DNA of 32,000 nucleotides from Okeania sp. (lineage in GTDB: Bacteria > Cyanobacteriota > Cyanobacteriia > Cyanobacteriales > Microcoleaceae), in assembly GCF_035285525.1 (NCBI RefSeq), contig NZ_JAYKGW010000108.1, forward strand, positions 3,007 through 35,006, written 5' to 3'. The first letter of the stretch is position 1. Every line of letters starts with the position of its first letter. The translations under genes and the position numbers were made by a program. The notes under the pieces are model-generated. The model saw only the letters and a list, made by a program, of their open reading frames with translations. It was not told the origin of the DNA and did not search any database. Positions 6,184 to 32,000 of the stretch are shown in pieces.

Positions 6184-8085
6184 TCATTTGTCAATTTTTG
6201 AATCTAAATAACGAACTAACTGTCCAGGAGCTAATTGATTAGTTCCAGTCGTCACCACCAAATCTCCCGGTTGCAATACCCCCCGCACCAAACTCCGATT
6301 TCCCTCCGTATGCAAAACCTCAACCATCCGTTTTTCAATCTGATAAGTTCCCAGAGGTAAGTCCCAATCTGACTTTTCCGGAGAAACCAAAGCAAAACAA
6401 GCTAACAACCCCCGCTTTCCCCAAACCAAAGCAGAAGTTGGCAACCAATATCCCGTCATACTATAAGTCTTATTAACTTCCAAACGAACCACAGTACCCG
6501 GAGCGATCGCTTGCGATAATGCTAAAATCACACTTTGAGTCCGAGTCGTAGAATCTAGCTCTGGTAAAATTGACAACACTTTTGCACTATAAGTTTTATC
6601 TCCCATCCTCACTTCCTCTACACTACCTACCCTCAAACCACTAACTTGAGTCGGTGGTACTCCAACCCGAACTTTCCTTTCCCCACCCTCCACCAAGCGC
6701 ACAACAGCTTCACCTGCATTCACCACAACGCCCTCATCTAAATTACGAACCGAAACAGTTCCAGTAAAAGGAGCATAAAGAATACTCTTTCTCAAAACAA
6801 CTTCAATTTCCCAAATTTCTGCATCGAAACGTTTAACTTCAGCTCGTTGCGCTTCTATCTGTTCGATGCGAGTTCCAGCAATAAGTTCATCTAACTGACT
6901 TTGCACTTGACGCACTCTAGCTTTTTGCGCTTCTATCTGTTCCGAGCGAGTTCCAGCAATAAGTTCATCTAACTGACTTTGCACCTGACGCACTCTAGCT
7001 CGTTGCGCTTCTATCTGTTCCGAGCGAGTTCCTGTTTGTAATTTCTCCAGTTCACTCCGCGCTCCCTCAAGTCTAGCATTAATAGTATCAGTTTGAGTAG
7101 CAAATTCATCAAGCTGTTCTTTAGAAATAGCTCCCTGTTGATAAAGTTCTTCTCGTCTTTTTTCCTGAATTTGAGCTAGTTCTAGTTGTTCTTCTAAGTC
7201 TAGAAGTGCTAAACGAGCTGCTTCAATATCTTCGGTGCGAGTTCCCGTTTGCAGTTCTTCTAATTTGGCTTGTTCTTGAGCTAATGAGGCGCGGGTAGCT
7301 GCTATTGTTTCTATCCTCGGTCCTGTTTGCAGTTCTTCTAATTTGGCTTGTTCTTGAGCTAATGAGGCGCGGGTAGCTGCTATTGTTTCTATTCTCGGTC
7401 CTGTTTGCAGTTCTTCTAATCTGGCTTGTTCTTGAGCTAATGAGGCCCGGATAGCTGCTATTTCTTCTATCCTTGCTCCGTTTTGTAGTTCTTTCAAGGA
7501 GGCGATCGCTTTTTCTCTCTGAGCTATTAATATTCCCCGTTGGGCAATGGTTTGGCTAGTATCTAGTTCAGCAATAATTTGCCCCTTAGTTACTGTGTCT
7601 CCTTCTTCTATATATATAGATCTCAGTAAACCTGATCGTTCAAAACCAAGTTCGCTTGTCCGTTTTGCTTCGACTATTCCTGTATAACTTTGAGCAACTG
7701 AATAGGAGTTAACTAATTTTATAGGGATAGCTGGAACAGAAAGGATATTGGGAAGAGGAGTTTCTGAGATTGGTTCGGGAAAATTTTGTTGATTTTGCCA
7801 AAATCTGATACTGCCAAAAGCTATTGCTAAAATAATTACCACAAAGCCAAACCGAAGAAATTTTCGTTCTTTATTTTTGGGTTTAAAGTTCCTAGCCTCA
7901 GACTGAATTGGTAAAGGTTCTATCTCACCAGTTTTGGCAATTTCAGACTGAATTGGTAAAGTTTCTATATTATCAGTTTTGGCAGTTTCAGATAGAATTG
8001 GTAAAGTTTCTATCTTATCAGTTAAGACTTCTACTTTACCATTTTTTTCGTAGGATTTAGAGTCTAACAATTTTTTGTCTGTCAT
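6184..8085 (-). CDS. Efflux RND periplasmic adaptor (HlyD/membrane-fusion family) with an expanded coiled-coil
   Basis: 633 aa. It has an N-terminal TM anchor (FGFVVIILAIAFGSIRFW), a lipoyl-like EEGDTVTKGQIIAELD, and a very long coiled-coil of 26-aa repeats. A beta-barrel segment (YAPFTGTVSVRNLDEGVVVNAGEAVVRLV) follows. It lies upstream and co-oriented with the RND permease. Confidence 0.9.
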   Translation of the reverse strand: MTDKKLLDSKSYEKNGKVEVLTDKIETLPILSETAKTDNIETLPIQSEIAKTGEIEPLPIQSEARNFKPKNKERKFLRFGFVVIILAIAFGSIRFWQNQQNFPEPISETPLPNILSVPAIPIKLVNSYSVAQSYTGIVEAKRTSELGFERSGLLRSIYIEEGDTVTKGQIIAELDTSQTIAQRGILIAQREKAIASLKELQNGARIEEIAAIRASLAQEQARLEELQTGPRIETIAATRASLAQEQAKLEELQTGPRIETIAATRASLAQEQAKLEELQTGTRTEDIEAARLALLDLEEQLELAQIQEKRREELYQQGAISKEQLDEFATQTDTINARLEGARSELEKLQTGTRSEQIEAQRARVRQVQSQLDELIAGTRSEQIEAQKARVRQVQSQLDELIAGTRIEQIEAQRAEVKRFDAEIWEIEVVLRKSILYAPFTGTVSVRNLDEGVVVNAGEAVVRLVEGGERKVRVGVPPTQVSGLRVGSVEEVRMGDKTYSAKVLSILPELDSTTRTQSVILALSQAIAPGTVVRLEVNKTYSMTGYWLPTSALVWGKRGLLACFALVSPEKSDWDLPLGTYQIEKRMVEVLHTEGNRSLVRGVLQPGDLVVTTGTNQLAPGQLVRYLDSKIDK

Positions 8086-8164: not shown

Positions 8165-8348
8165 AGTCCCAAGGAGACTTAAGTAATGGTGTGCATCCAT
8201 AAACCCGGTTTCTTGTATCTAGGTGTGTGCCCGTTGTCAGCTACATGAGCCAAAGAATTTATTCTTTGGCTCAAAGCTAAATTCCCAAGGGGAATCAAAC
8301 AATGGCCTGCATCCATAAACCCGGTTTCTTGTACCTAGGTGTGTGCCC
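8165..8348. repeat. Two-copy ~70-bp direct repeat (spacing ~117 bp) with AAACCCGGTTTCT core
   Basis: aatggtgtgcatccataaacccggtttcttgtatctaggtgtgtgccc (8185-8232) matches aatggcctgcatccataaacccggtttcttgtacctaggtgtgtgccc (8302-8348). A perfect 12-bp-arm palindrome gagccaaagaat tt attctttggctc lies between them at 8247-8272. Confidence 0.8.
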
Positions 8349-8495
8349 TTGAGAGACTCTACAGTAGGGGGGCGGGTCTGGCTAGCTCAATGTGAAGAGC
8401 TACGCGCCCTTGAGAGACTCTAGAGTAGGGGGGCGGGTCTGGCTAGCTCAATGTGAAGAGCTACGCGCTCTTGAGAGACTCTACAGTAGGAGGTC
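8346..8495. repeat. 61-bp tandem repeat, about 2.4 copies
   Basis: The unit cccttgagagactctacagtaggggggcgggtctggctagctcaatgtgaagagctacgcg starts at 8346, 8407 and 8468 (the last is partial). Confidence 0.9.
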
Positions 8496-9303: not shown

Positions 9304-9382
9304 AGGACTTATGCAGAAACCCCATATTTTTTAGGGGCAAGCAGAACCACCATATTTTTTAGGGGTAGAGGGCATTTGCCCT
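9304..9382. repeat. Solo MITE end plus a two-copy ~29-nt tandem repeat
   Basis: aggacttatgcagaaaccccatattttttaggggcaagcagaaccaccatattttttagggg. Only the left AGGACTTA-type end is visible. The unit cagaacc(a)ccatattttttagggg occurs twice. Confidence 0.5.
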
Positions 9383-9450
9383 ATACAAGTAGTGTATTGT
9401 TCAACTGTTTAACACTTTGCGTCAATCTTGTTGGTATTAGAGATAATTTT

Positions 9451-9490
9451 CATTATCAATTATCCATTATTCATTATCAATTATTTATTA
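9451..9490. repeat. STRR-type heptamer array (CATTATC / CAATTAT variants)
   Basis: cattatcaattatccattattcattatcaattatttatta. The upstream extension of ORF 9376..10086 is translated through this array. Confidence 0.8.
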
Positions 9491-10086
9491 TGCCATACAG
9501 TAAATTTACCCTAAGCAAAGCCGTAGAAAACTTTGAATTAACTATTATTGAAGGCGATCGCTTTCTACCAGAAGTTCCCCAAATTAATCCTACTGCTTTA
9601 CTCAGAGATACCTTGAAAGAAACAGTACCTTGGGCGATCGCTGTGAATAGTGAAAAAGCTCGTTCTGAAGGTATTATTAATCCAGTATTATTAGAAGTCA
9701 AACGTCAGCTCAAAGGAAAAATCAGCGTTTTTTCTGGTGAAGAGTTTGCAGTACAACCAGAAATTGATTTAACTGGATATGTTGATTTTTTGATTAGTCG
9801 TTCTTCTGAACAATTATTTATTAGAGCGCCTGTGGTAGTTTTAGTGGAAGCGAAAAAAGAGGACTTGAAATCATCTCTAGGACAATGTTTAGCAGAAATG
9901 GTAGCAGCTCAACGTTTTAATCAACAGAAACAGCAACCAATTTCAACTATTTACGGTACTGTTACAAGTGGTACAGTTTGGCGATTTTTGAAACTAGAAG
10001 AGCAAACAGTTACAATAGACTTAACAGATTATCCATTGCCACCCGTTGAGCAAATTTTAAGCTTTCTAGTTTGGATGGCAAGGTAA
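9490..10086 (+). CDS. Conserved hypothetical with restriction-endonuclease-like PD-(D/E)xK motifs; paralog of 30931..31521
   Basis: I place the start at the internal ATG 9490 (MPYSKFTLSKAVENF..), which aligns with the start of the paralog. Motifs are SEKARSEGII (helix E), GYVDFLIS (D), VVVLVEAKK (ExK) and GQCLAEMVAA (Q). About 40-45% identical by eye to 30931..31521. Confidence 0.7.
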   Translation: MPYSKFTLSKAVENFELTIIEGDRFLPEVPQINPTALLRDTLKETVPWAIAVNSEKARSEGIINPVLLEVKRQLKGKISVFSGEEFAVQPEIDLTGYVDFLISRSSEQLFIRAPVVVLVEAKKEDLKSSLGQCLAEMVAAQRFNQQKQQPISTIYGTVTSGTVWRFLKLEEQTVTIDLTDYPLPPVEQILSFLVWMAR

Positions 10087-24316: not shown

Positions 24317-24652
24317 TTATTTTTGAGAAATCGTATTAGGTACGTTTTCTATAATTAATATTTCTGGCTCAAAAACTCTAGCTATTTTGATTAATTCTCT
24401 AAAAAGATTATTTCTAGAATATTTAGGTTCTCCACCATTTTTATTACAAATAGAATACCTTTGACAAGGAGGAATACTAATGATAATTTGTGGTTTATTA
24501 TTACTCCAAATTGCTACAATATCTTTTTCATTTTCATTCTCCACCCCAAAATTGTGGGTTACTGATAAAAGTTCCTCTAATTTAGAGGTGAGGCGATCAA
24601 AAAATTTGAGAATGAAAATACCCTGCTTAAAAGGGGAGGCTTGAGATCTCAT
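24317..24652 (-). pseudogene. Remnant of a DNA (cytosine-5)-methyltransferase (motifs IV and VI only)
   Basis: ..IIISIPPCQRYSICNKNGGEPKYSRNNLFRELIKIARVFEPEILIIENVPNTISQK* contains the catalytic PPCQ (motif IV) and ENV (motif VI) at normal spacing. The position of motif I (FxGxGG) reads FFDRLT. Everything after motif VI (motif VIII, TRD, IX, X) is missing. The first ~12 codons are read through a dispersed repeat also found at 10170-10213. Confidence 0.6.
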
Positions 24653-25149
24653 TTTTTGGTCAGGAATTTTTACCTTACTCCTACCCTTAAATTTAAGGTA
24701 ACAAATTTGTCAATGGTTATAATTACTTAAGCACCCACAGTTGTTCAAAATTAGTTTTTTTGAGATTTATTCATCCGTAGAAAAGGTATAAATTTTTGCA
24801 CTCTATATTGACGAAAAATAGAAGGTTGTAGCTTTTTATAGGGAAAATTTATGATTTTTAAACACAACATTAGCACAATAAACTATGTATCCAGATGATA
24901 CCAAATCCCTGAAATAACGCAAGTAGGTGAAATATTTTGTAACAATTAGCCGAAATCAGATTTATTTTGATAAGCAGAAAAAATAATAATAGTTGATTAT
25001 ATTTTTTTTACTTATGTTTTGCGTTCTTGTGGGAAACTGTTTTTGAATTTTTTTATAGAAGAAGGCGATCGCAACTTCTGTAAGGAAGATTTTAAATAGG
25101 GAATCAACAGAATAAGTAATTAATTTTGCAAGATATAGGGCTGCGCGCA

Positions 25150-25199
25150 GGGAACAGGGAACAGGGAACAGGGAACAGGGAACAGGGAACAGGGAACAG
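25150..25199. repeat. STRR heptamer array GGGAACA x7
   Basis: gggaacagggaacagggaacagggaacagggaacagggaacagggaaca. Confidence 0.9.
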
Positions 25200-25233: not shown

Positions 25234-25672
25234 CTATTAATCCTTGATTTTTTTAGCATTTTACGGGCTACATTTTCTGTTAAACCAGTTGACTGAAATT
25301 AACGTACTAAAGATTAATAATGATTGACAATTTATTTTATATAATATCTAAATACAGGTTTAACAATAAATAAAGTCGGATTTTCCTCTGAAATTTTATC
25401 TATGAAATTTTGTCTTTCTCAGGATAGTAATATTTGAAATAATTCTGGTGATGATAGTTGGGATTTTTCTAATATTTGGGAAACAGAAACAGATTTTTCT
25501 GCTTTGCTAAGTTGAGACAGTAATTGTTTTTCTCTTTTAGACAACCTTGGAAAATGTTGTTGTAAAATATTGGTTAATTCATCGGATAAAAATAGGGGTT
25601 GATAACTTAAATATTGAGCTACACTTCTACCAAATAATTTTTTGATTGTCTCTCCTATTAATTTTAACCATT
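25234..25672 (-). pseudogene. Scrambled degenerate partial copies of the STAND NTPase gene (winged-helix segment copy plus a copy of the segment preceding it)
   Basis: 25314-25672 is collinear with 25700-26055, about 85-90% by eye. It reads WLKLIGETIKKLFGRSVAQYLSYQPLFLSDELTNILQQHF.. with internal stops. 25234-25313 copies 26090-26170 (..FQSTGLTENVARKMLKK vs ..FQLTGLTEKVGRKMLKN) but lies on the wrong side for a simple tandem duplication. Confidence 0.7.
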
Positions 25673-25688
25673 ACTGAAATCAACCTCC

Positions 25689-27107
25689 TCAGATTAACAA
25701 TGATTGACAATTTATTATTCTCAATATAGGTTTAACAATAAATAAAGTCGGATTTTCTTCTTTAATTTTATCTATCAAATTTCGTCTTTCTAAGGATAGT
25801 AATGTTTGAAATAATTCTGGTGATGATAATTGTAATTTTTCTAATATTTGGGAAACAGAAACAGATTTTTCTGTTTGGCTAAGTTGAGACAGTAATTGTT
25901 TTTCTAATTGAGATAATCTTTGAAAATGTTGTTGTAAAATATTGGTTAATTCATCGGATAAAAATAGGGGTTGATAACTTAAATATTGAGCTACACTTCC
26001 ACTAAATAATTTTTTGATTGTCTCTCCTATTAATTTTAACCATTGAGGATTACCTTGATAGAAATTTATCAACTCTTGCCATTTTTATTCATCTAATAAT
26101 CCTTGATTTTTTAGCATTTTACGCCCTACCTTTTCTGTTAAACCAGTTAACTGAAATAAACGTACTGGTGAGTCTTTATCTGTAAAGTTGAAAATTTCTA
26201 AAGGTGGTTCCCAAGTATTAAGAATTAAACAACTATTATGAGGAAGTTCGCCGATAATTTTTAGTAGGTTGCCATAGTTTTCATATCCTGGTTTATAGTT
26301 ACCGACAAGTTGTTCGCTATTTAGTATTTTTTGTAGATCATCAAGAATAATTAGACAACGTATCTCCCGTAATTTTTCTATCAGTATTGATAGTTGAGTA
26401 TCCGTGTTATTCGGGAGGTTTATTTCTGTTACGTTGGAGATAGTTTCTATTAAGTTTTTGAGAGTTAGGTTTAAGGGTGGAGATGTGCGGAGGGTACGCC
26501 AGATAATACGGTCGAAGTTAGATTCTATTTGGGGGATGAGGTGACGAATAATGGTGCTTTTACCAATACCGCTGATTCCGGAAATGGTGATGAGGCGACA
26601 ATGATGTTTGAGTATCCAGGTTTTGAGAGTAGTAAGTTCGGTGGAGCGATCATAGAATGTTTTTTTGATATTTGGTGCGTCTCGGAGGTCGAGTTTTGGC
26701 AGTGGGGTTTTATTTTCGTTTATTGTTTGTTTAGTGGGTGATTTTGATTGAGTTTCTTCTAGAGAGTTGGTGTTATCTGTACAGAGATTAATATTACCTT
26801 TTACATAATTACTTTGTCGTCCGAAATTCAATATACTTGAAAAGTTAGAAATTTGATATCTTTCCATCGCAGCGAGGAAATTTGACTTACGAATTTTTTC
26901 ATTTAATTCCTGAGAAATAAGTTTCCATAAATTTGAAGCGACATTTCCCACATGAAATTTAGTGCAGCGATATTCTTTAGCAACCTTTGAGTATTTTTCC
27001 CCTTGCCAAGTAGCGCGTAATATGGCTTTTTGCAGACTATCAAGATGTTTGCCAGTTTTATCGAAAACTATATCATCCACAAACCTTAAAACTTCATTAA
27101 GAGTCAT
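25689..27107 (-). pseudogene. STAND-class P-loop NTPase (NACHT/NB-ARC-like) with N-terminal HTH-like domain; in-frame TAA at 26085-26087 and no C-terminal repeat domain
   Basis: ORFs 26085..27107 and 25689..26072 share one frame, separated only by TAA plus four codons: ..NQGLLDE*KWQELINFYQGNPQWLKL... Walker A is ITISGISGIGKST and Walker B is CLIILDDL. The GNPxxLKL and FxRLSxxEKxLL..LSLxRRxLI segments form the helical/winged-helix arm. The N-terminus (MTLNEVLRFVDDIVFDKTGKHLDSLQKAILRATWQGEKYSKVAKEY..NVASNLWKLISQEL) is the domain common on cyanobacterial NACHT-WD40/TPR proteins. ORF 25689..26072 starts at TTG, an internal Leu. Confidence 0.7.
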
Positions 27108-27357
27108 TGGTCAATATTGGTTAGGAATAAATTCCTATTGTATCCGATCTTTTCTTAATATTTAGGAAAAAATCTGATATTTTCTGATTGTTATTTTGAG
27201 TCATAGATTATTTTTTCTGAGATTTGATTAGTAGTAGCTCTGATTATGTGTCGTAGTAAATTATTAGGTATTAGATTACTTGGCGAAACTGTAAAACTTT
27301 ATTTTACATATAAGGAAGTAATCCGAATCAAAAAGTATTTGGAGAATATCTAACATA

Positions 27358-27855
27358 ATGAAAAATACAAATTTTCAATCTATTCTTCTATCTTTAGGCG
27401 TTATTTTATTGCCACTCACTGTTAGTAATTTAGTATTAGCAAACATTTCTGCTCAAGGATTAAAAACCACCTTAAATAGAACTTTATCAGGTACATACGA
27501 CGAAGGAACTTGGGGAGGTAAAGGTAGTAACGAAACATGGAATCATTCATGGACAATGGTAGGTGATACAGTTGTTCAATTAAGTAATATTAAAGAAGTT
27601 GATGGTGAATTTACAGCCAATTTAAAAATAGCTTGGAAATGTAAACATACTAGAGAAGATTATAATTTTGCTGGTATCAGAAAAGGTAAATATGATGATA
27701 GATATTCTGGTCATGTAACTGCTGAAGTTGCTGTGGGAAGTATAGCAGGTCAATCAAAGATTTTTGTAAACAATATCAATAACACATACCCAAATTTTCG
27801 ATGTGGAAATAGTCTTGTAAATAAACTCAAAAAGCTCAATCAATCTGAACTATAA
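27358..27855 (+). CDS. Secreted hypothetical protein (signal peptide, 2 Cys)
   Basis: 165 aa. The N-terminal leader is MKNTNFQSILLSLGVILLPLTVSNLVLANISAQG. The mature part is rich in G/N/T/W, with Cys at ..AWKCKH.. and ..FRCGN... I recognise no family. Confidence 0.6.
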   Translation: MKNTNFQSILLSLGVILLPLTVSNLVLANISAQGLKTTLNRTLSGTYDEGTWGGKGSNETWNHSWTMVGDTVVQLSNIKEVDGEFTANLKIAWKCKHTREDYNFAGIRKGKYDDRYSGHVTAEVAVGSIAGQSKIFVNNINNTYPNFRCGNSLVNKLKKLNQSEL

Positions 27856-27904
27856 AATTGTAGAGATGCTAGCAGTATAGTTACTAAATATTGATGGTTT
27901 TAAC

Positions 27905-28160
27905 AAATATAAAATTTGTCAGATTTGCCGACTATATTGATTAGTCAAATTTTGGTAATTAATTAATCTTCCCGAAACCATTAATATTTAGTAATTCTAA
28001 AAAGTAATGTTTTCGGAGATAAGTAAATTAACAGGAGTGTCAAATATTGACGAATTTATTATTATTGATTTTTTTAAATAAAGATAAAATTTGTCATATT
28101 TGCTAGCTGCATTGATTAGTCAAATTTTGGTAATTAATTAATCTTCCCGAAACCATTAAT
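27905..28160. repeat. Two-copy direct repeat (offset 175 bp) with an identical 50-mer
   Basis: attgattagtcaaattttggtaattaattaatcttcccgaaaccattaat occurs identically at 27936-27985 and 28111-28160. Each copy is preceded by the core aaaatttgtca[g/t]atttgc (27911, 28086). Confidence 0.85.
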
Positions 28161-28236
28161 GCTGAATATATTCGTTAGTTAAACTTTCTATCTCATCTAT
28201 CAAGGTCTAAAGTTAGATATATCAAATTTAGTATTA

Positions 28237-28298
28237 GTTATGGTAGACAAATTTTGATGAATCTATATCAACAGTAAAAGTGATGATATTTACCCACC
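28237..28298. repeat. Hairpin element H1 (degenerate copy of H2/H3)
   Basis: gttatggtagacaaattttgatgaatctatatcaacagtaaaagtgatgatatttacccacc is collinear with 29771-29832 and 30662-30723. Confidence 0.7.
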
Positions 28299-28429
28299 TT
28301 ACTTATTACTGTAGACCAGTAAGCAGTAAATAAATTTAGCAAATATTGATTTGATTAATAAATATAAAACTTGTCAGGTTTGCTAACTACATCTATCACC
28401 ATAAACATTCATATTTAAGGATAAATATA

Positions 28430-29014
28430 ATGTTTAAAAACTTCAAAAAAATAGGCTATTGTTTTTTAACAGCAACGGTCTTGATACTCGGCATTAGTTC
28501 AAAAACAAATAGTCAAAATACTGCTCCTGGTTTATGTCTGAGACATACAAGAATAAGTGGTTCGTCTGGAAATGTGATAGATACTAATTGGATATGTTCA
28601 AGAGCAGGTAATTTTAGTAAATGGATTGGACTAGGAGATGATACAGGTTGGAAGGATCAAGAATTAGCTTTTAAAGCGATTGGTGGTGCAGAAATTTGTT
28701 TAGAGCATACTAGAGTTAGTCCTTCTAGTGGATTACTCAGAGATAGCAAATGCAGTAGATCTTATAATGATATTCAGTCCGTAAATTTAGGAGATGATAC
28801 TGGTTGGAAAGATCAAAAATTGACCTTTACTATTTATACTCCTAGAGAAAATTACGAAATGTGTTTACAACATAGAAGAAGAAGTGGTAGTTCGGGAAAA
28901 GTAATTAATACTGGTTGGAAATGCGCTTCTGAGTATAATCAAGAAACTATTTATTTAGGAGATGATACTGGTTGGAGAGACCAAAACTTAAGATTTACAA
29001 TAAGAAATAGATAA
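28430..29014 (+). CDS. Secreted protein built of three ~52-aa internal repeats (possible beta-trefoil-like fold)
   Basis: 194 aa. The leader is KKIGYCFLTATVLILGISS. Three repeats follow: CLRHTRISGSSGNVIDTNWICS..LGDDTGWKDQELAF, then CLEHTRVSPSSGLLRDSKCS..LGDDTGWKDQKLTF, then CLQHRRRSGSSGKVINTGWKCA..LGDDTGWRDQNLRF. Each has two Cys. Confidence 0.7.
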   Translation: MFKNFKKIGYCFLTATVLILGISSKTNSQNTAPGLCLRHTRISGSSGNVIDTNWICSRAGNFSKWIGLGDDTGWKDQELAFKAIGGAEICLEHTRVSPSSGLLRDSKCSRSYNDIQSVNLGDDTGWKDQKLTFTIYTPRENYEMCLQHRRRSGSSGKVINTGWKCASEYNQETIYLGDDTGWRDQNLRFTIRNR

Positions 29015-29119
29015 CAACTTTAGAAAGGGAAAAATAACTGTTTCTTGAAATTTTAATTATTTCAGAATATTCGATCTATTAGTTTGGCGTAAAGTAAACT
29101 TTTAATAGGAATAAAAATT

Positions 29120-29764
29120 ATGAATCCACAAACATTATTCAATGTAGCCAAAACATTTCCAATAGTCAAAAAAAGAAAGTTATTTAAAAACTTATTGTTG
29201 TATCCTACTGCACTTTTAACAGCTCTAAGTTTAACTTTTTCGATACAGGAAAAAACTAACTCTGTTGATGATGATATTGAAATAAATTACCAACTCGAAG
29301 TCTGCAACGAGTATAAAAAAATAATCTATGTAGCTAGGGCAAAGTCTGAATCTTATCTAATAGCTGGAGATAGAAATTATGGCTCTCCATACGGCCGAAG
29401 AATAACAGCATCAAAAGTTAGAGGATGGATTCCAGTTTCTCCTAACAAATGTAAAATTTTTTCCACCTTGTCATTAGGTCTTGAACGTCCAAAATATTCA
29501 CGTTATCTAGGTAGAGAAAGTTCTCTATATATAAAGAGTTCTGACAATAAAAGTTTTCCTCCACAACACATAACAAGTTATAGAAATTCTCAAGGAGGTA
29601 ACACTACAAAACCATCATTTTGTGTGACTGATAAAGGTTTTAATTTCTCTTCCAAAGGTCATCAACTATCAGGTTATCAATGTCCTCGTAATAAACCTGA
29701 AGGTGCATATTTTGTTATATTTGAGCCAGTTTATTCTAGTAAAAATAAGATAGTTTTTCGCTAG
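29120..29764 (+). CDS. Secreted/anchored 4-Cys protein, DUF1036-like; paralog of 29985..30656
   Basis: 214 aa. Hydrophobic leader is LLLYPTALLTALSLTFSI. The pattern EVCNEY..IYVARA..VRGWIPVSPNKCKIF..FCVTDKGFNF..YQCP..GAYFVIFEPV resembles DUF1036 (xCNxT..VxVA..GW..vxPgxC..fCv..f..C..f.ev). This is motif recollection only. Confidence 0.55.
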   Translation: MNPQTLFNVAKTFPIVKKRKLFKNLLLYPTALLTALSLTFSIQEKTNSVDDDIEINYQLEVCNEYKKIIYVARAKSESYLIAGDRNYGSPYGRRITASKVRGWIPVSPNKCKIFSTLSLGLERPKYSRYLGRESSLYIKSSDNKSFPPQHITSYRNSQGGNTTKPSFCVTDKGFNFSSKGHQLSGYQCPRNKPEGAYFVIFEPVYSSKNKIVFR

Positions 29765-29770
29765 ATTTTG

Positions 29771-29832
29771 CTTATGGTAAGCAAATTTTGATAAATTTTA
29801 TCAACAGTAAAATTTGCTATATTTGCCTCTCC
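29771..29832. repeat. Hairpin element H2, 6 nt after the stop of 29120..29764
   Basis: cttatggtaagcaaattttgataaattttatcaacagtaaaatttgctatatttgcctctcc. It is followed by a 7-bp hairpin ctcctgg..ccaggag that includes a HIP1 site. Confidence 0.7.
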
Positions 29833-29984
29833 AGCTCCTGGCGATCGCTGTAAACCAGGAGTAATAAAAAATAGATAATAACTTTAAGAAAGGGAAAGAT
29901 AACTGTTTCTTGAAATTTTAATTATTTGAGAATATTCCATCTATTAGTTTGGCATAAAGTAAATTTTTAATAGGAATAAAAATT

Positions 29985-30656
29985 ATGAACTCACGAAAAT
30001 TATTGAATCTAGTCACAACATTTCCAATAGTCAGAAAAAGAAAGTTGTTCAAAAACTTATTGTTGTATCCTACTGCACTTTTAACAGCTCTAAGTTCAAC
30101 TTTTTTGATACAGGAAAAAACCAACTCACAACTAAATATTAATACTGAAATATTTTACAATGTTAAAGTCTGCAACGAGTATAAAAAGAAAATATTTGTA
30201 GCTAGGGCAAAACAGCGAGCTTATTTAGTAGCTGGAAATAGAAATTATGGTAATCCATACGGTGTAAGATTAGAAGTATCAAAAGTTAGAGGATGGGGTT
30301 CAGTTCTTCCTAATGAATGTCAAGGTTTTCCGATTCTAAAATTAGATGTCGATCCTCCAAAAAATTCACGGTATTTGGATACACAAGACTGGATATATAT
30401 AATGAGTTCTGATCAGAAAAAATTTCCTCCACAAGACATAAAAAGTTATAGAAATTCTCAGGGAGGTAACTCTGTAAGACCAGAATTTTGTGTAATTAAT
30501 AAGGTTTTTAATTTATCTTCTAGAAATTACCAAAAAACAGGAACTAGAATTTGTCCTGGTTATAATATAAATAAAAAATCTACCTTACCTCAAGGTACAG
30601 ACTTTGTTAGATTTGAGCCAGTTTCTCCTCAGAAGGATAGCATAGTTTTTCCCTAG
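29985..30656 (+). CDS. Secreted/anchored 4-Cys protein, DUF1036-like; tandem paralog of 29120..29764
   Basis: 223 aa. The leader region is nearly identical to its paralog (FPIV[KR]KRKLFKNLLLYPTALLTALS). The mature part is roughly 55-60% identical by eye, with all four Cys and the VSKVRGW and SYRNSQGGN blocks conserved. Confidence 0.55.
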   Translation: MNSRKLLNLVTTFPIVRKRKLFKNLLLYPTALLTALSSTFLIQEKTNSQLNINTEIFYNVKVCNEYKKKIFVARAKQRAYLVAGNRNYGNPYGVRLEVSKVRGWGSVLPNECQGFPILKLDVDPPKNSRYLDTQDWIYIMSSDQKKFPPQDIKSYRNSQGGNSVRPEFCVINKVFNLSSRNYQKTGTRICPGYNINKKSTLPQGTDFVRFEPVSPQKDSIVFP

Positions 30657-30661
30657 ATTTA

Positions 30662-30723
30662 GTTATGGTAGGCAAATTTTAATGAATCTATATCAACAGT
30701 AATATTTGTTATATTTGCCTACC
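30662..30723. repeat. Hairpin element H3 (best-formed copy), 5 nt after the stop of 29985..30656
   Basis: ggtaggcaaat (30667-30677) pairs perfectly with atttgcctacc (30713-30723) around a ~35-nt loop. The outer ccctag/ctaggg arms extend the palindrome. Confidence 0.75.
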
Positions 30724-30930
30724 CTACTAGGGTGTTTAACTCGAAAATGTGGGTTCAAAAAAACCTAACCCCCCAACTCCTTTCTCTGGGAGGAAAGGAG
30801 GAGTATCTCTCCCCACTCAAAAGCAGGAGAGGGGTTGGGGGAGAGGTTTTCATTGACTCAATTTTTACCTATAAATAAATCTAGATAAACTACTACTTAT
30901 TCTTTCAATTTCTAATTACAAACACTTAAT

Positions 30931-31521
30931 TTAACTAACCATTTCCACAAAAATTCCGATTATCTTTCTCGAATCTTTAATATAGTAATTCTCTACATCA
31001 ATAAACACTGAACTATTTTCCAATTTCAAAAATTTCCAAACATAACCAGTAGTCACCGCACCATAAATAAAAGGAACATCTTTACCATCTTTTTGATTAT
31101 ATATTTCCGCAGCAACCATTTCGGCAATACATTGTCCTAAACCACTAACTATTCTTTCACTTTTAGCTTCTACAAGAACAACTACAGGAGTATCTAAATA
31201 TAATTGTTCTGGAGATTGACTAATAATAAAATCACAAAATCCATTCAACCCTTTATCCCGATCTACTGAAAAATCTATACCCGAAAAAAAACTGATTTTA
31301 AGTTGCCTTTTAATCTCCAGCAAAATATTAATAATTATCAACTCAGAACTAGCTTTTTCCGTAGCGATCGCTAAAGCAATAGGTACATTTTGCTTTAAGG
31401 TCTCATCCAAAAGATTACTAATTTCTACAGGTTCAATTTGAGAAAATAAATCTTCTGTTTCTATAATCTTTAAATTAAACTCAGTTTTGACTTTTTTTAA
31501 ATCAAAATCACTATATGACAT
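30931..31521 (-). CDS. Conserved hypothetical with PD-(D/E)xK motifs; paralog of 9490..10086
   Basis: 196 aa. Motifs are TEKASSELII, GFCDFIIS, VVVLVEAKS and GQCIAEMVAA, in the same order and spacing as in 9490..10086. Confidence 0.7.
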   Translation of the reverse strand: MSYSDFDLKKVKTEFNLKIIETEDLFSQIEPVEISNLLDETLKQNVPIALAIATEKASSELIIINILLEIKRQLKISFFSGIDFSVDRDKGLNGFCDFIISQSPEQLYLDTPVVVLVEAKSERIVSGLGQCIAEMVAAEIYNQKDGKDVPFIYGAVTTGYVWKFLKLENSSVFIDVENYYIKDSRKIIGIFVEMVS

Positions 31522-31776
31522 TTTACTTATTCTTGATTTCCTAAATCATAATTTTTCTATTTATTATAAATAATTTTATCTCGGAAATTCTACTCTTAAT
31601 TACCCATTTTATTTTTAGTAGTTTCTCTGTCTATAGATTGTGCCTTTATTGCACTTTTATTTGTTTATTTTTAATTTAAAAAAGCTATAGATATTTATCA
31701 CTTTAGCACTAAATAAGTAGTTACATCAGTATATTACCTTTAAACAAGAAACCAAAATAAAGGGGCGGGTTTAGTT

Positions 31777-32000
31777 GGGAAATTTATTTGATAAACTTTC
31801 AGAAGAAAGGGGTGAGTTTAGTAAGGTTAAAAGTTTTTAATTAAGTTAACTGAAAAACCTGCCTCTACTTTGGGAAATTTATTTGATAAACTTTCAGAAG
31901 AAAGGGGTGAGTTTAGTAAGGTTAAAAGTTTTTAACTAAGTTAACTGAAAAACCTGCCTCTACTTTGGCAAATTTATTTGATAAACTTTCAGAAGAAAGG
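31777..32000. repeat. 95-bp tandem repeat, at least 2.3 copies, running off the right edge
   Basis: The unit gggaaatttatttgataaactttcagaagaaaggggtgagtttagtaaggttaaaagtttttaattaagttaactgaaaaacctgcctctacttt starts at 31777, 31872 and 31967. The copies are nearly identical. Confidence 0.9.

Follow-up and report, generated by a model that had tools for sequence, protein, structure and literature searches.

The 32,000-nt stretch of an Okeania sp. genome analyzed here (hereafter, the window) contains four consecutive genes, ORF1 to ORF4, all of which are labelled 'hypothetical protein' in the assembly. What kind of locus do these genes form? The first-pass annotation described them as a same-strand array of exported, cysteine-containing proteins and a candidate for an undescribed module; the ORF listing of the window returned the same four ORFs, all on the plus strand (Table 1). 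The host order was wrongly given as Nostocales, since Okeania belongs to the Microcoleaceae. Okeania is a marine filamentous cyanobacterium.

Borders and control region of the array

Profile matches agree with the proposed location of the array between a decayed STAND NTPase and C5-methyltransferase remnant on one side and a PD-(D/E)xK-like gene on the other. The STAND gene is broken by one in-frame TAA (26085-26087, codon 341; translation LLDE*KWQEL) and otherwise aligns in a single frame, with 82-83% identity, to intact orthologues of 469-479 aa, for which PF26355 is a precomputed assignment. The methyltransferase remnant spans just positions 41-117 of 324 in the PF00145 profile and corresponds only to residues 67-131 of an intact 400-aa homologue in Dapis. 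The PADLOC PD_DExK model matches the Dapis orthologue of the right-border protein, 89-91% identical to that of the window, with E = 3.3e-50. The idea that 24.3-31.5 kb is more repeat-laden than 2.3-20.8 kb held only in part, as 6.8-8.5 kb is likewise rich in tandem repeats.

Table 1. Features of the array and its surroundings (window positions)
Feature	Position	Strand	Details
C5 cytosine DNA methyltransferase remnant	24317-24652	-	111-aa ORF; PF00145, E = 1.4e-10
Tandem duplication of STAND 3' end	25347-26044		372-bp, 1.9 copies, 93% matches
STAND NTPase, HTH(VMAP-M9 type)-NB-ARC-winged-helix	25689-27107	-	NB-ARC 33.6 bits vs cut-off 23.5
Divergent control region, STAND/first array gene	27108-27322		conserved, ~200 nt
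ORF1	27358-27855	+	165 aa
Inverted repeat/hairpin after ORF1	27876-27999	+	25-nt arms, 88% complementary; motif copy 1 (27911-27928)
Direct duplication in ORF1-ORF2 spacer	27898-28160	+	175-bp spacing, 88-nt copies, 90% identical; motif copy 2 (28086-28103)
Decayed orphan ORF4-type 3' element	28229-28313	+	no gene upstream; degenerate sixth motif copy
Hairpin element TTAGCAAAT…GTTTGCTAA upstream of ORF2	28331-28392	+	motif copy 3 (28366-28383)
ORF2	28430-29014	+	194 aa
Duplication unit 1	28999-29862	+	ORF2 tail, 105-nt spacer, ORF3, 3' hairpin, junction hairpin containing GCGATCGC (the cyanobacterial HIP1 palindrome)
ORF3	29120-29764	+	214 aa
ORF3 3' hairpin element	29762-29830	+	motif copy 4 (29809-29826)
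Duplication unit 2	29863-30728	+	ORF2-tail and spacer copy, ORF4, 3' hairpin
ORF4	29985-30656	+	223 aa
ORF4 3' element	30654-30728	+	11-bp stem GGTAGGCAAAT/ATTTGCCTACC, conserved ~42-nt loop; motif copy 5 (30701-30718)
PD-(D/E)xK nuclease-fold protein, right border of slot	30931-31521	-	PADLOC PD_DExK

The control region displays 88% mean pairwise identity over 8 loci irrespective of the gene that follows, and homology of the window to other loci stops at ~27322. In orthologous control regions, a palindrome (TAGGAAT…ATTCCTA) lies within the first ~90 nt together with four copies of a TCTGAT repeat, two of which are mutated in the window. A promoter scan performed no better than chance and no canonical terminator was found.

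Predicted exported proteins of three unrelated families

Each of the four proteins was thought to start with a hydrophobic leader, and hydropathy analysis concurs: the highest Kyte-Doolittle scores in a 15-residue window are 2.39 (ORF1), 2.18 (ORF2), 1.63 (ORF3), and 1.32 (ORF4), values that stem from a heuristic rather than from a dedicated signal-peptide predictor, and by the same heuristic no further hydrophobic segment is present. The anticipated pairing of cysteines was likewise recovered, the mature part of all four proteins containing an even number, conserved in homologues (two in ORF1, six plus one leader residue in ORF2, and four each in ORF3 and ORF4). ORF1, ORF2, and ORF3/ORF4 belong to three mutually unrelated families; profile searches placed none of them in a characterized housekeeping family, as predicted, and uncovered no PADLOC or PHROGs match and no toxin or enzyme motif in any of the four. 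Judged by these searches, they are three undescribed orphan families. ORF1, with a strong Sec-type leader and two conserved cysteines (C95 and C149), lacks any profile match, including in PADLOC and PHROGs, and is classified as an orphan family on that basis.

In ORF2, the leader precedes three ~54-aa repeats (CL.H.R.S.SSG…C…LGDDTGW.DQ.L.F), each with one cysteine pair and an LGDDTGW(K/R)DQ motif. The AlphaFold model is all-beta and confident (mean pLDDT 87, 91-97 in the mature part), with residues 1-29 disordered and the fold beginning at residue 34. Foldseek found no match in PDB or BFVD (best query-normalised TM-scores 0.26 and 0.33, respectively), no PDB sequence profile matched at E <= 10, and none of 17 family members matched Pfam. 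As modelled, ORF2 is an undescribed all-beta domain of three repeats for which no structural analogue has been solved. Three tandem ~54-aa repeats of four strands each recall beta-trefoils (ricin-B) and beta-prisms (jacalin; vitelline membrane outer layer protein I, VMO-I), and VMO-I, too, carries a DDT-containing motif and a single disulfide in each repeat. However, neither fold occurs among the 50 Foldseek matches listed for ORF2, and its strands, at ~10 residues, are longer than in trefoils. A ricin-B/beta-trefoil fold for the array proteins thus found no support in Pfam, PDB profiles, or Foldseek. Distant ORF2 homologues carry classical AxA-type leaders, and in a protein from Pseudomonadota the domain sits C-terminal to a membrane helix. 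In other cyanobacteria, ORF2 is found alone between housekeeping genes; thus, the four genes are not an obligate module.

ORF3 and ORF4 are paralogues with 59-61% amino acid identity, depending on the alignment, and share four conserved cysteines. ORF4 is the conserved copy, with a conserved leader, whereas the upstream ORF3 is fast-diverging. Within the family, conservation peaks in the leader (residues 21-48), and a predicted cleavage-site region, KTNSQ, is common to ORF2 and ORF4-type leaders. The ORF3/ORF4 leader, only moderately hydrophobic and with a 22-residue N-region, could alternatively be a membrane anchor. The array is confirmed as real and partly fast-evolving: mature-part dN/dS is 0.4-1.07 for ORF3/ORF4, pairwise values near 1 being no proof of positive selection, compared with ~0.1 for PD-(D/E)xK, ~0.25 for STAND, and ~0.2-0.3 for ORF2, so that the proposed fast evolution applies to the former family but not to ORF2. 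A neutral-evolution simulation, in which just 0.07-0.8% of simulated ORF3 copies remained stop-free, argues against ORF3 being a pseudogene. Clearly, the mature part changes rapidly yet is kept open by selection.

The initial 'DUF1036-like' label did not survive scrutiny. ORF3 and three other family members match DUF1036 (PF06282) weakly, over 25 residues around SKVRGW..P..C, the best score (17.3 bits) lying below the gathering cut-off of 23, and membership was therefore rejected. ORF4 itself has no such match, and an exhaustive search of 1.84 billion representatives with the family profile returned no DUF1036 protein. It retrieved three proteins, all at E <= 2.7e-17, which we read as family members or fragments; by this measure, the ORF3/ORF4 family is restricted to one clade. 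DUF1036 is an uncharacterized bacterial family, scarce in the literature, and ORF3/ORF4 likewise have no known function. By analogy only, a conserved leader, a quickly diverging mature part, and tandem duplication would liken the family to conotoxins and class II bacteriocins, from which it differs in that the mature part is ~175 aa rather than a peptide and that no double-glycine leader, dedicated transporter, or immunity gene nearby is associated with it.

Gene-end hairpins, duplications, and cassette variation

An 18-nt motif, AAAATTTGTCAKATTTGC, has five matches at up to 3 mismatches, all on the plus strand and all at 27.9-30.7 kb, against a chance expectation of 0.25; five were reached in 0 of 100 shuffles. 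Of the six same-strand copies of a 22-nt core reported initially, five and a degenerate sixth were thus recovered in that orientation, with a core of 18 nt. The hairpins noted initially after gene units were recovered: they follow ORF1 (27879-27997, z = -5.1), ORF3, and ORF4 (30667-30724, z = -4.3), but not ORF2. The ORF4 3' element takes up the interval separating ORF4 from the convergent PD-(D/E)xK gene, and ORF4-type elements have 86% column identity over 11 copies; like the control region, they are conserved above the synonymous sites of the genes. The stem contains a G.U pair, compatible with a plus-strand RNA structure, and shows no compensatory double changes. The element without an upstream gene (28229-28313) has lost 5 of its 11 stem pairs and folds no better than shuffled sequence. 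Across other strains, the motif invariably forms the 3' arm of a hairpin, ~45 nt past ORF4-type stops and ~56 nt past ORF1 stops; its position does not vary between loci, and the flanks lack it. It is therefore attached to genes and was copied by duplication, rather than being the organising 'repeat scaffold' once thought to tie the array together.

The ~865-bp tandem duplication was upheld by four repeat pairs (D2, D3, D11, and D19) spaced 864-892 bp. The unit takes in the last ~16 nt of ORF2, and 29863-29948 corresponds to the 3' end of ORF2 plus the sequence downstream of it; unit 2 is 95% identical to a single-copy Dapis locus. Okeania SIO2C9 has equivalent copies of the ORF1-ORF2 spacer duplication.

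Comparison of about 15 related loci (Okeania, Dapis, Microcoleaceae) showed that strains differ, as expected, in the number of copies and in gene content, and bore out the adjacency of STAND and PD-(D/E)xK to the array in every locus with an ORF4-type gene. The general layout is STAND, optional ORF1, 142-aa membrane protein, 146-aa lipoprotein, and ORF2, then one or two ORF4-type genes and PD-(D/E)xK. The window has ORF1, ORF2, and two ORF4-type paralogues, whereas other strains add the membrane-protein/lipoprotein pair, lack ORF1 or ORF2 (the latter in L023), or have a single ORF4-type gene; L025 retains the control region and has another gene, of 178 aa, in the slot. Junctions are clean: Dapis M229 lacks 27323-28407, and the window lacks the membrane-protein/lipoprotein pair. 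Decayed versions include a frameshifted ORF4 (L004/L005), a fragment (Dapis M126), and a fusion or deletion (L026). In L004, L005, and L026, STAND is reduced to fragments and ORF1 and ORF2 are intact; given also the broken STAND gene of the window, the array does not strictly depend on STAND. The full arrangement comes only from loci of a single shallow clade, with nucleotide identities of about 80-95%, and STAND adjacency may therefore reflect plain orthology rather than functional linkage.

Nature of the locus

The locus resembles NTP-dependent conflict systems (Kaur, Burroughs, Iyer, Aravind 2020, PMC7159879) in its STAND protein with a VMAP-M9-type N-terminal helical/HTH module, its filamentous cyanobacterial host, and the combination of a constant NTPase with variable neighbours. 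In those systems, effector domains are fused to or tightly coupled with core proteins, with vWA-MoxR or other partners (PMC7159879), whereas here STAND is a minimal HTH-NB-ARC-wHTH protein and the variable genes are separate, encode predicted exported proteins, and lack recognisable effector domains; no vWA or MoxR was detected among the called genes of related loci or the ORFs at 23-32 kb of the window. STAND and slot could nonetheless be one conflict (defence or allorecognition) system, the HTH-NB-ARC switch sensing a threat and turning on swappable exported or membrane effectors, with ORF3/ORF4 in an arms race. Such a system would match the HTH_VMAP-M9 module known from conflict systems of multicellular bacteria (PMC7159879), the constant core with variable neighbours, including the unrelated 178-aa membrane-type gene, the nearby restriction-modification pair (intact in Dapis) and CRISPR-associated-type PD-(D/E)xK gene, the high dN/dS of ORF3/ORF4, and the decay in the window of both the TCTGAT repeats and the STAND gene. 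We consider it unlikely, however, given array proteins devoid of PADLOC or PHROGs matches and of toxin or enzyme motifs, a weak PADLOC match of STAND itself (PDC-S27, E = 2e-4), array genes intact where STAND is dead, an ORF2 autonomous elsewhere, and a linkage seen only in one shallow clade.

Alternatively, there may be no module at all, merely a recombination hotspot that collects and decays unrelated lineage-specific orphan genes, with strand, leaders, and hairpins incidental. The individual dispensability of each cassette, the several decayed versions, the low GC content (28-34%), the solitary movement of ORF2, and the unrelatedness of the three families are in line with this, but random accumulation would not be expected to yield only predicted exported or membrane proteins. 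The orientation of all cassettes away from the STAND gene, the KTNSQ region common to two families, a control region and 3' element more conserved than synonymous sites, and selection keeping ORF3 open also render the hotspot improbable. An integron-like or other site-specific cassette system, in which the gene-following hairpins would be attC-like recombination sites, is hardly credible despite same-strand cassettes, imperfect palindromes behind some of them, and clean insertion/deletion junctions: no integrase or other recombinase adjoins the slot in any locus examined, hairpins stand behind ORF1 and ORF4-type genes only, not behind ORF2 or the membrane-protein/lipoprotein pair, their arms read by eye lack RYYYAAC/GTTRRRY core sites, the stem G.U pair fits RNA and not single-stranded DNA of the other strand, and cassette junctions lie ~15-25 nt off the hairpins.

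With modest confidence, we favor the reading that the region is a clade-restricted, cassette-variable accessory locus, with a slot between STAND plus its control region and PD-(D/E)xK that acquires, loses, and duplicates independent cassettes encoding exported or membrane proteins. In this accessory locus, the first cassette would be transcribed from the conserved control region, on whose TCTGAT repeats the N-terminal HTH of STAND may act, and ORF2 with the following ORF4-type gene would constitute one transcription unit ending at the conserved hairpin. The four proteins would leave the cell by the Sec pathway, with cleavage after a TNS/ISA-type site and disulfide bonding outside the cytoplasm. 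From sequence features, the array products appear to be exported binding-type proteins, possibly under STAND control; they may have a binding role outside the cytoplasm, on the cell surface or in the sheath, where ORF3/ORF4 would experience diversifying pressure from an outside partner, for example, phage, grazers, or neighbouring cells.

The four array proteins and the ORF2 domain

The four plus-strand genes of the array lie exactly where the first-pass annotation had placed them (see table), and all are annotated as hypothetical proteins in the Okeania sp. assembly. The host, assigned in that annotation to the Nostocales, belongs instead to the Microcoleaceae, relatives of Trichodesmium. ORF1-ORF4 are orphans: none matches a Pfam or NCBIfam family at the curated threshold, none has a PADLOC or PHROGs match at E ≤ 0.01, that is, no defence or phage family was found, and the literature yielded nothing on these proteins, DUF1036 turning up only in one paper on another subject. 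ORF3 and ORF4 are paralogues of a single family. Homology among the ORF1, ORF2 and ORF3/ORF4 families was rejected by profile-profile comparison (hhalign probabilities ≤ 0.2%), and the C-x-(x)-H-T-R string common to ORF1 and ORF2 is therefore regarded as coincidental. ORF1 has five close relatives and nothing further.

Assignment of ORF3 and ORF4 to DUF1036 (PF06282) is not supported. The whole-protein gathering cut-off is 23 bits; the ORF3 match, 25 residues long, reaches only 17.3 bits (E = 0.008), and ORF4 has none. Of the eight family members, four give a match at E ≤ 1, the best of them at E = 0.008, and no DUF1036 protein was recovered by exhaustive profile search. In 1.84 billion representatives searched with hmmsearch, the ORF3/ORF4 profile found three matches, all scoring E ≤ 2.7e-17 with this profile of the family itself, which we read as probable family members or fragments; a word-seeded search gave nine clusters for the family. 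The AlphaFold prediction for ORF4, built on only 8 close sequences, is poor (mean pLDDT 49.7), so that its weak Foldseek matches to arrestin-like beta-sandwiches (E ≥ 0.017) are unusable.

Each of the four proteins has one hydrophobic N-terminal segment and no second membrane-type segment by hydropathy. Sec type I signals combine a positive N-region, an H-region of about 10-20 residues and small residues at positions -3 and -1 of the cleavage site. By hydropathy and manual inspection, the leaders of ORF1 (…LANISA/QG, the slash marking the putative cleavage site) and ORF2 (…GISSKTNS/QN) look like classical Sec leaders, and in those of ORF3/ORF4 the basic N-region is 22 residues long and the hydrophobic core weaker, ahead of an …EKTNS/Q site. 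Export of all four products is accordingly a heuristic call, supported by AxA-type leaders in distant ORF2 homologues, by disorder of the ORF2 model up to residue 29 and by a Pseudomonadota protein in which the ORF2 domain follows a membrane helix on the C-terminal side. The mature parts carry even numbers of cysteines (two in ORF1, six in ORF2, four each in ORF3 and ORF4), which are kept in homologues. The leaders of ORF2 and ORF3/ORF4 are also alike (MFKNFKK…SSKTNSQ and LFKNLLL…EKTNSQ); the match is weak (41-46% identity, tblastn E = 0.14-0.32) and hints at either a common origin or a common processing constraint on the export signal.

ORF2 is built of three repeats with pairwise identities of 51-52% and 21 invariant positions (consensus CL.H.R.S.SSG…C…N…LGDDTGW.DQ.L.F). 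Its family is small, with 16 clusters among 5.8 billion, yet taxonomically scattered over cyanobacteria, a Pseudomonadota MAG, Hyphomicrobiaceae and possibly Saccharibacteria. The AlphaFold model, obtained from 17 sequences, is confident (mean pLDDT 87, 91-97 in the mature part; pTM 0.78) and all-beta, with four long strands in each repeat. Foldseek returned no PDB match at E ≤ 1e-3 (best query-normalised TM-score 0.26) and one in BFVD (E = 5.9e-4) with a TM-score of only 0.20, the best TM-score in that database being 0.33. The family profile matched no PDB sequence, and none of the 17 members matched Pfam. A beta-trefoil of the ricin-B type, as had been suggested, would be expected to adopt the trefoil fold or match QxW-repeat families, and a beta-prism (jacalin or VMO-I) to resemble solved beta-prism proteins in structure or profile; the Foldseek, PDB-sequence and Pfam searches supported neither, and no search bore out a likeness to VMO-I. 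We predict ORF2 to be a compact, disulfide-bonded, three-repeat all-beta domain without a Pfam entry and, judged against PDB and BFVD, provisionally a new fold.

In the Pseudomonadota MAG (locus L017), a 466-aa single-pass membrane protein ends in an outward-facing ORF2-type triple repeat; its N-terminal ~230 aa have no Pfam match. The neighbouring genes resemble, from reading of translations only, an integrase, a PIN-type toxin and XRE-type regulators.

A constant frame with exchanged contents

In the related loci, the array occupies a frame of constant order: a STAND gene on the minus strand, a conserved region of about 200 nt, a variable set of plus-strand genes and a minus-strand PD-(D/E)xK gene. 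The contents of this slot differ among Okeania and Dapis loci, as the first-pass annotation had expected. The fullest version (Okeania SIO2C9, L006) holds ORF1, a 142-aa membrane protein, a 146-aa lipoprotein, ORF2 and ORF4; L023 has the same set without ORF2; Okeania KiyG1 lacks ORF1 and carries two ORF4-type genes; and Dapis M229 and L008 contain only ORF2 and ORF4. Dapis M126, L004/L005 and L026 carry decayed versions, and L025 retains the control region followed by an unrelated 178-aa membrane-type gene. Relative to Dapis, the segment with ORF1 and its hairpins is an insertion or deletion with clean junctions. The membrane-protein/lipoprotein pair is absent from the window and has left no trace: the spacer between ORF1 and ORF2 was considered as its remnant and rejected for want of any tblastn trace, and is homologous to the spacer downstream of ORF1 in Okeania SIO2C9. 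Both proteins of the pair are orphans. The first (138-148 aa) is basic at its N-terminus and has a single membrane helix and a strongly acidic tail; the other, a lipoprotein of 136-146 aa (…LLGC), has a charged body that resembles a coiled coil.

Three MAGs (Coleofasciculus, Caldora and an uncultured one) carry ORF2 without the rest of the array, flanked by housekeeping genes. Homology covers the coding sequence and at most ~70 nt, at ~88% nucleotide identity. Because it ends at the gene borders, it suggests recent gene-sized horizontal transfer or mis-binning of the MAGs, and ORF2 appears to be an autonomous, horizontally moving gene. Reading of translations only places the Coleofasciculus copy between ExbB/ExbD-like and fumarase-like genes and the uncultured one beside a long glycosidase-like ORF.

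The control region, which adjoins the STAND start, has 88% mean identity across strains whatever gene comes next, and contains a TAGGAAT…ATTCCTA palindrome and four TCTGAT direct repeats. The window has lost two of the four repeats; its STAND gene is interrupted by a nonsense codon, a single in-frame TAA, and the 3′ end of this gene is duplicated over 372 bp. STAND membership was judged by an NB-ARC/P-loop match above cut-off followed by a winged helix; the NB-ARC domain (PF00931) reaches 33.6 bits, above the cut-off of 23.5, and a winged helix matches residues 396-443 of the Dapis orthologue. Together with HTH_VMAP-M9 (PF26355), taken from precomputed annotation of orthologues, this gives an HTH(VMAP-M9 type)-NB-ARC-winged helix architecture without sensor repeats. 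The methyltransferase of the window is a 111-aa remnant; the same place in Dapis M229 (L001) has an intact 400-aa C5 methyltransferase beside two Bpu10I-type endonuclease ORFs or fragments.

On the right, the PD-(D/E)xK gene matches the PADLOC CRISPR-associated PD_DExK model at E = 3.3e-50 over profile positions 2-144 of 146, spanning the catalytic core (D…E-x-K), and has the motif CDF…VLVEAK. A second gene of this type, 48% identical to it, lies in the left part of the window; Trichodesmium and Okeania metagenomes contain many genes of its family, and one 90% cluster has 62 members. The GC content is 28-34% over 24-32 kb versus 34-42% over 12-23 kb.

Positions of features in the window and in compared loci (L-numbers; L001 is Dapis M229)
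Feature	Locus	Position	Strand	Length or detail
ORF1	window	27358-27855	+	165 aa
ORF2	window	28430-29014	+	194 aa
ORF3	window	29120-29764	+	214 aa
ORF4	window	29985-30656	+	223 aa
STAND gene	window	25689-27107	-	
PD-(D/E)xK gene	window	30931-31521	-	
Second PD-(D/E)xK gene	window	9376-10086 (paralogue 9490-10083)	+	
Control region	window	27108-27322		alignment A6
ORF1 and its hairpins	window	27323-28407		
ORF1-ORF2 spacer	window	27856-28429		
Orphan element	window	28229-28313		
ORF2 leader match	window	28430-28516		
ORF3/ORF4 leader match	window	30043-30128		
164-bp insertion	window	30729-30892		
95-bp tandem repeat	window	31775-32000		runs off window end
Heptamer repeat	window	25148-25199		(CAGGGAA)x7.4
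Other heptamer repeats	window	10089, 12463, 18164, 19194, 23642		
Heptamer repeat	L001	13321-13367		CAGGGAA
Long-period tandem repeats	window	6841-7493, 7898-8023, 8345-8490		periods 78, 45, 61 bp
633-aa ORF	window	6184-8085		
Lone ORF2	L011	7998-8655		
Lone ORF2	L013	630-1262		
Lone ORF2	L015	8001-8585		
Membrane-protein/lipoprotein pair	L006	1951-2906		
Membrane-protein/lipoprotein pair	L014	6951-7906		
Membrane-protein/lipoprotein pair	L007	3358-4303		
Membrane-protein/lipoprotein pair	L023	9054-9992		
C5 methyltransferase region	L001	4620-6917		
ORF2-type repeat protein	L017	7065-8465		466 aa

Repeats, duplication and divergence of the array genes

The core motif AAAATTTGTCAKATTTGC occurs in five copies (≤ 3 mismatches), all on the plus strand and all within 27.9-30.7 kb, against a chance expectation of 0.25; a sixth, degenerate copy lies inside an orphan element. 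The motif is the 3′ arm of a hairpin, and in every related locus one copy follows each ORF4-type stop by ~45 nt and the ORF1 stop by ~56 nt. No copy was found in the flanks of related loci (up to ~10 kb a side), and the idea that this 18-nt motif is a dispersed mobile repeat was rejected, as none is present in the rest of the window or in the locus flanks. The ORF4-type 3′ element takes up the space that separates the convergent ORF4 and PD-(D/E)xK genes and has 86% column identity over 11 copies, above that of the adjoining coding sequence. All copies have an 11-bp stem that includes a G.U pair, as would suit a sense-strand RNA hairpin; the 11 copies contain no compensatory double changes, and covariation thus proves nothing here. 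A scan for consensus promoters and terminators performed no better than on shuffled sequence and found no terminator, and known RNA families gave only a chance miRNA match (E = 0.1). On the simplest reading, the element would be a terminator or an RNA-stabilising hairpin.

The tandem duplication of ~865 bp noted in the first-pass annotation is real (repeat pairs D2, D3, D11 and D19) and starts within the last ~16 nt of ORF2. Okeania KiyG1 has the junction sequence GCTCCTGGCGATCGCT after its first copy as well, and its locus is colinear with that of the window across ORF2 and both copies, so that the duplication is older than the split between these strains. The supposed repeat scaffold dissolves into gene-attached hairpins and a segmental duplication, of which it is a by-product. 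An integron-like cassette array, which would bring an IntI integrase, an attC site after each cassette and conserved core sites, was likewise rejected, because no recombinase adjoins the slot in related loci and hairpins stand behind only two of the five cassette types.

The window has other repeats as well. A 164-bp insertion separates the 3′ hairpin of ORF4 from the PD-(D/E)xK gene; it is present in no orthologous locus and has no second copy in the window or compared loci. Because it contains a long, G/C-rich imperfect palindrome, AACCCCCCAACTCC…GGGGTTGGGGGAG (-54 kcal/mol, z = -3.7), it resembles a small element of the MITE type. A 95-bp tandem repeat with at least 2.4 copies at 98% identity lies directly past the PD-(D/E)xK gene. 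Heptamer tandem repeats, typical of filamentous cyanobacteria, are present at several places, and the same CAGGGAA run is found in Dapis and in L011. Long-period tandem arrays with 90-96% matches lie within a 633-aa ORF and, for the 61-bp array, just downstream of it, so that repeats are not limited to 24-32 kb.

The array evolves fast but under constraint. Pairwise dN/dS (Nei-Gojobori; comparisons with SIO2C9 ORF2 and L008 PD-(D/E)xK left out) is ~0.1 for the PD-(D/E)xK gene, ~0.25 for STAND, ~0.2-0.3 for ORF2 and ~0.4 for ORF1. In the mature part of ORF3/ORF4 it rises to 0.41-0.87 among single-copy orthologues and to 0.70-1.08 in any pair with an upstream paralogue (ORF3 or KiyG1 copy a), the leader (residues 21-48) being the best-conserved part of the family. 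ORF3 is not a drifting pseudogene, since only 0.07-0.8% of copies subjected to simulated neutral substitution at its divergence remained without stop codons. The ORF3 type is an older, separate lineage, as a fragment from another metagenome is 68% identical to ORF3 and only 41% to ORF4. A diversity-generating retroelement was set aside as the source of ORF3/ORF4 divergence, as the ORFs read at 23-32 kb and the called genes of related loci gave no sign of a reverse transcriptase. These patterns fit a mix of purifying and diversifying selection on ORF3/ORF4. The first-pass view of the array as real, fast-evolving and variable in copy number was largely right; the labels attached to it (DUF1036, trefoil, Nostocales, scaffold) were wrong or unsupported.

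Standing and possible function of the locus

Collectively, the best-supported reading is that the locus is a clade-restricted accessory slot for exported proteins. Transcription of the slot genes likely starts in the conserved divergent control region, and the HTH of the STAND protein possibly governs the slot. The products would probably act outside the cytoplasm as binding proteins, with ORF3 and ORF4 probably under outside pressure. The analysis shows the layout of the locus, the orphan status of its proteins, the exchange of cassettes and their rapid yet constrained evolution; export, the transcription units, control by STAND and a role in binding are inferences.

That STAND and slot form a conflict system is a less likely reading. 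In NTP-dependent conflict systems, an NTPase core is coupled to effector domains and to vWA-MoxR, GAP1 or other partners (Kaur et al. 2020; PMC7159879). The VMAP-M9-type module of the window STAND is the sole feature in common with them; no effector or partner domain was found in the array proteins or their neighbours, which places the locus outside that class. Three observations limit the conflict reading: the array genes are intact where STAND is dead, ORF2 stands alone elsewhere, and all linked loci come from one shallow clade. We consider it unlikely, though worth stating, that the minimal HTH-NB-ARC STAND and the TCTGAT-repeat control region form a nucleotide-dependent switch for swappable exported or membrane effector cassettes, a new conflict or surface-variation architecture in filamentous marine cyanobacteria. 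Its cassettes would be ORF1, the membrane-protein/lipoprotein pair, ORF2 with its previously unseen fold and the diversifying ORF3/ORF4 paralogues, and the effectors would act outside the cell.

As a kind of system, a variable accessory island of secreted orphan proteins is familiar; what makes this one truly interesting is the ORF2 domain, together with the combination of a STAND gene and an exchangeable slot. To our knowledge, almost nothing is known of surface biology in Okeania, Dapis and related marine cyanobacteria, which form blooms and mats. ORF2 offers a new domain to study, with a confident predicted structure that has no PDB or BFVD counterpart. ORF3 and ORF4 are clade-restricted and combine a conserved leader with a fast-changing body, as is typical of proteins facing an outside partner. 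STAND and its strongly conserved 200-nt control region beside a swapped slot make a testable regulator-target pair. If this link is false, the locus would be an ordinary accessory island with interesting orphan genes; if it is true, the repertoire of STAND-based systems would be widened to exported effectors.
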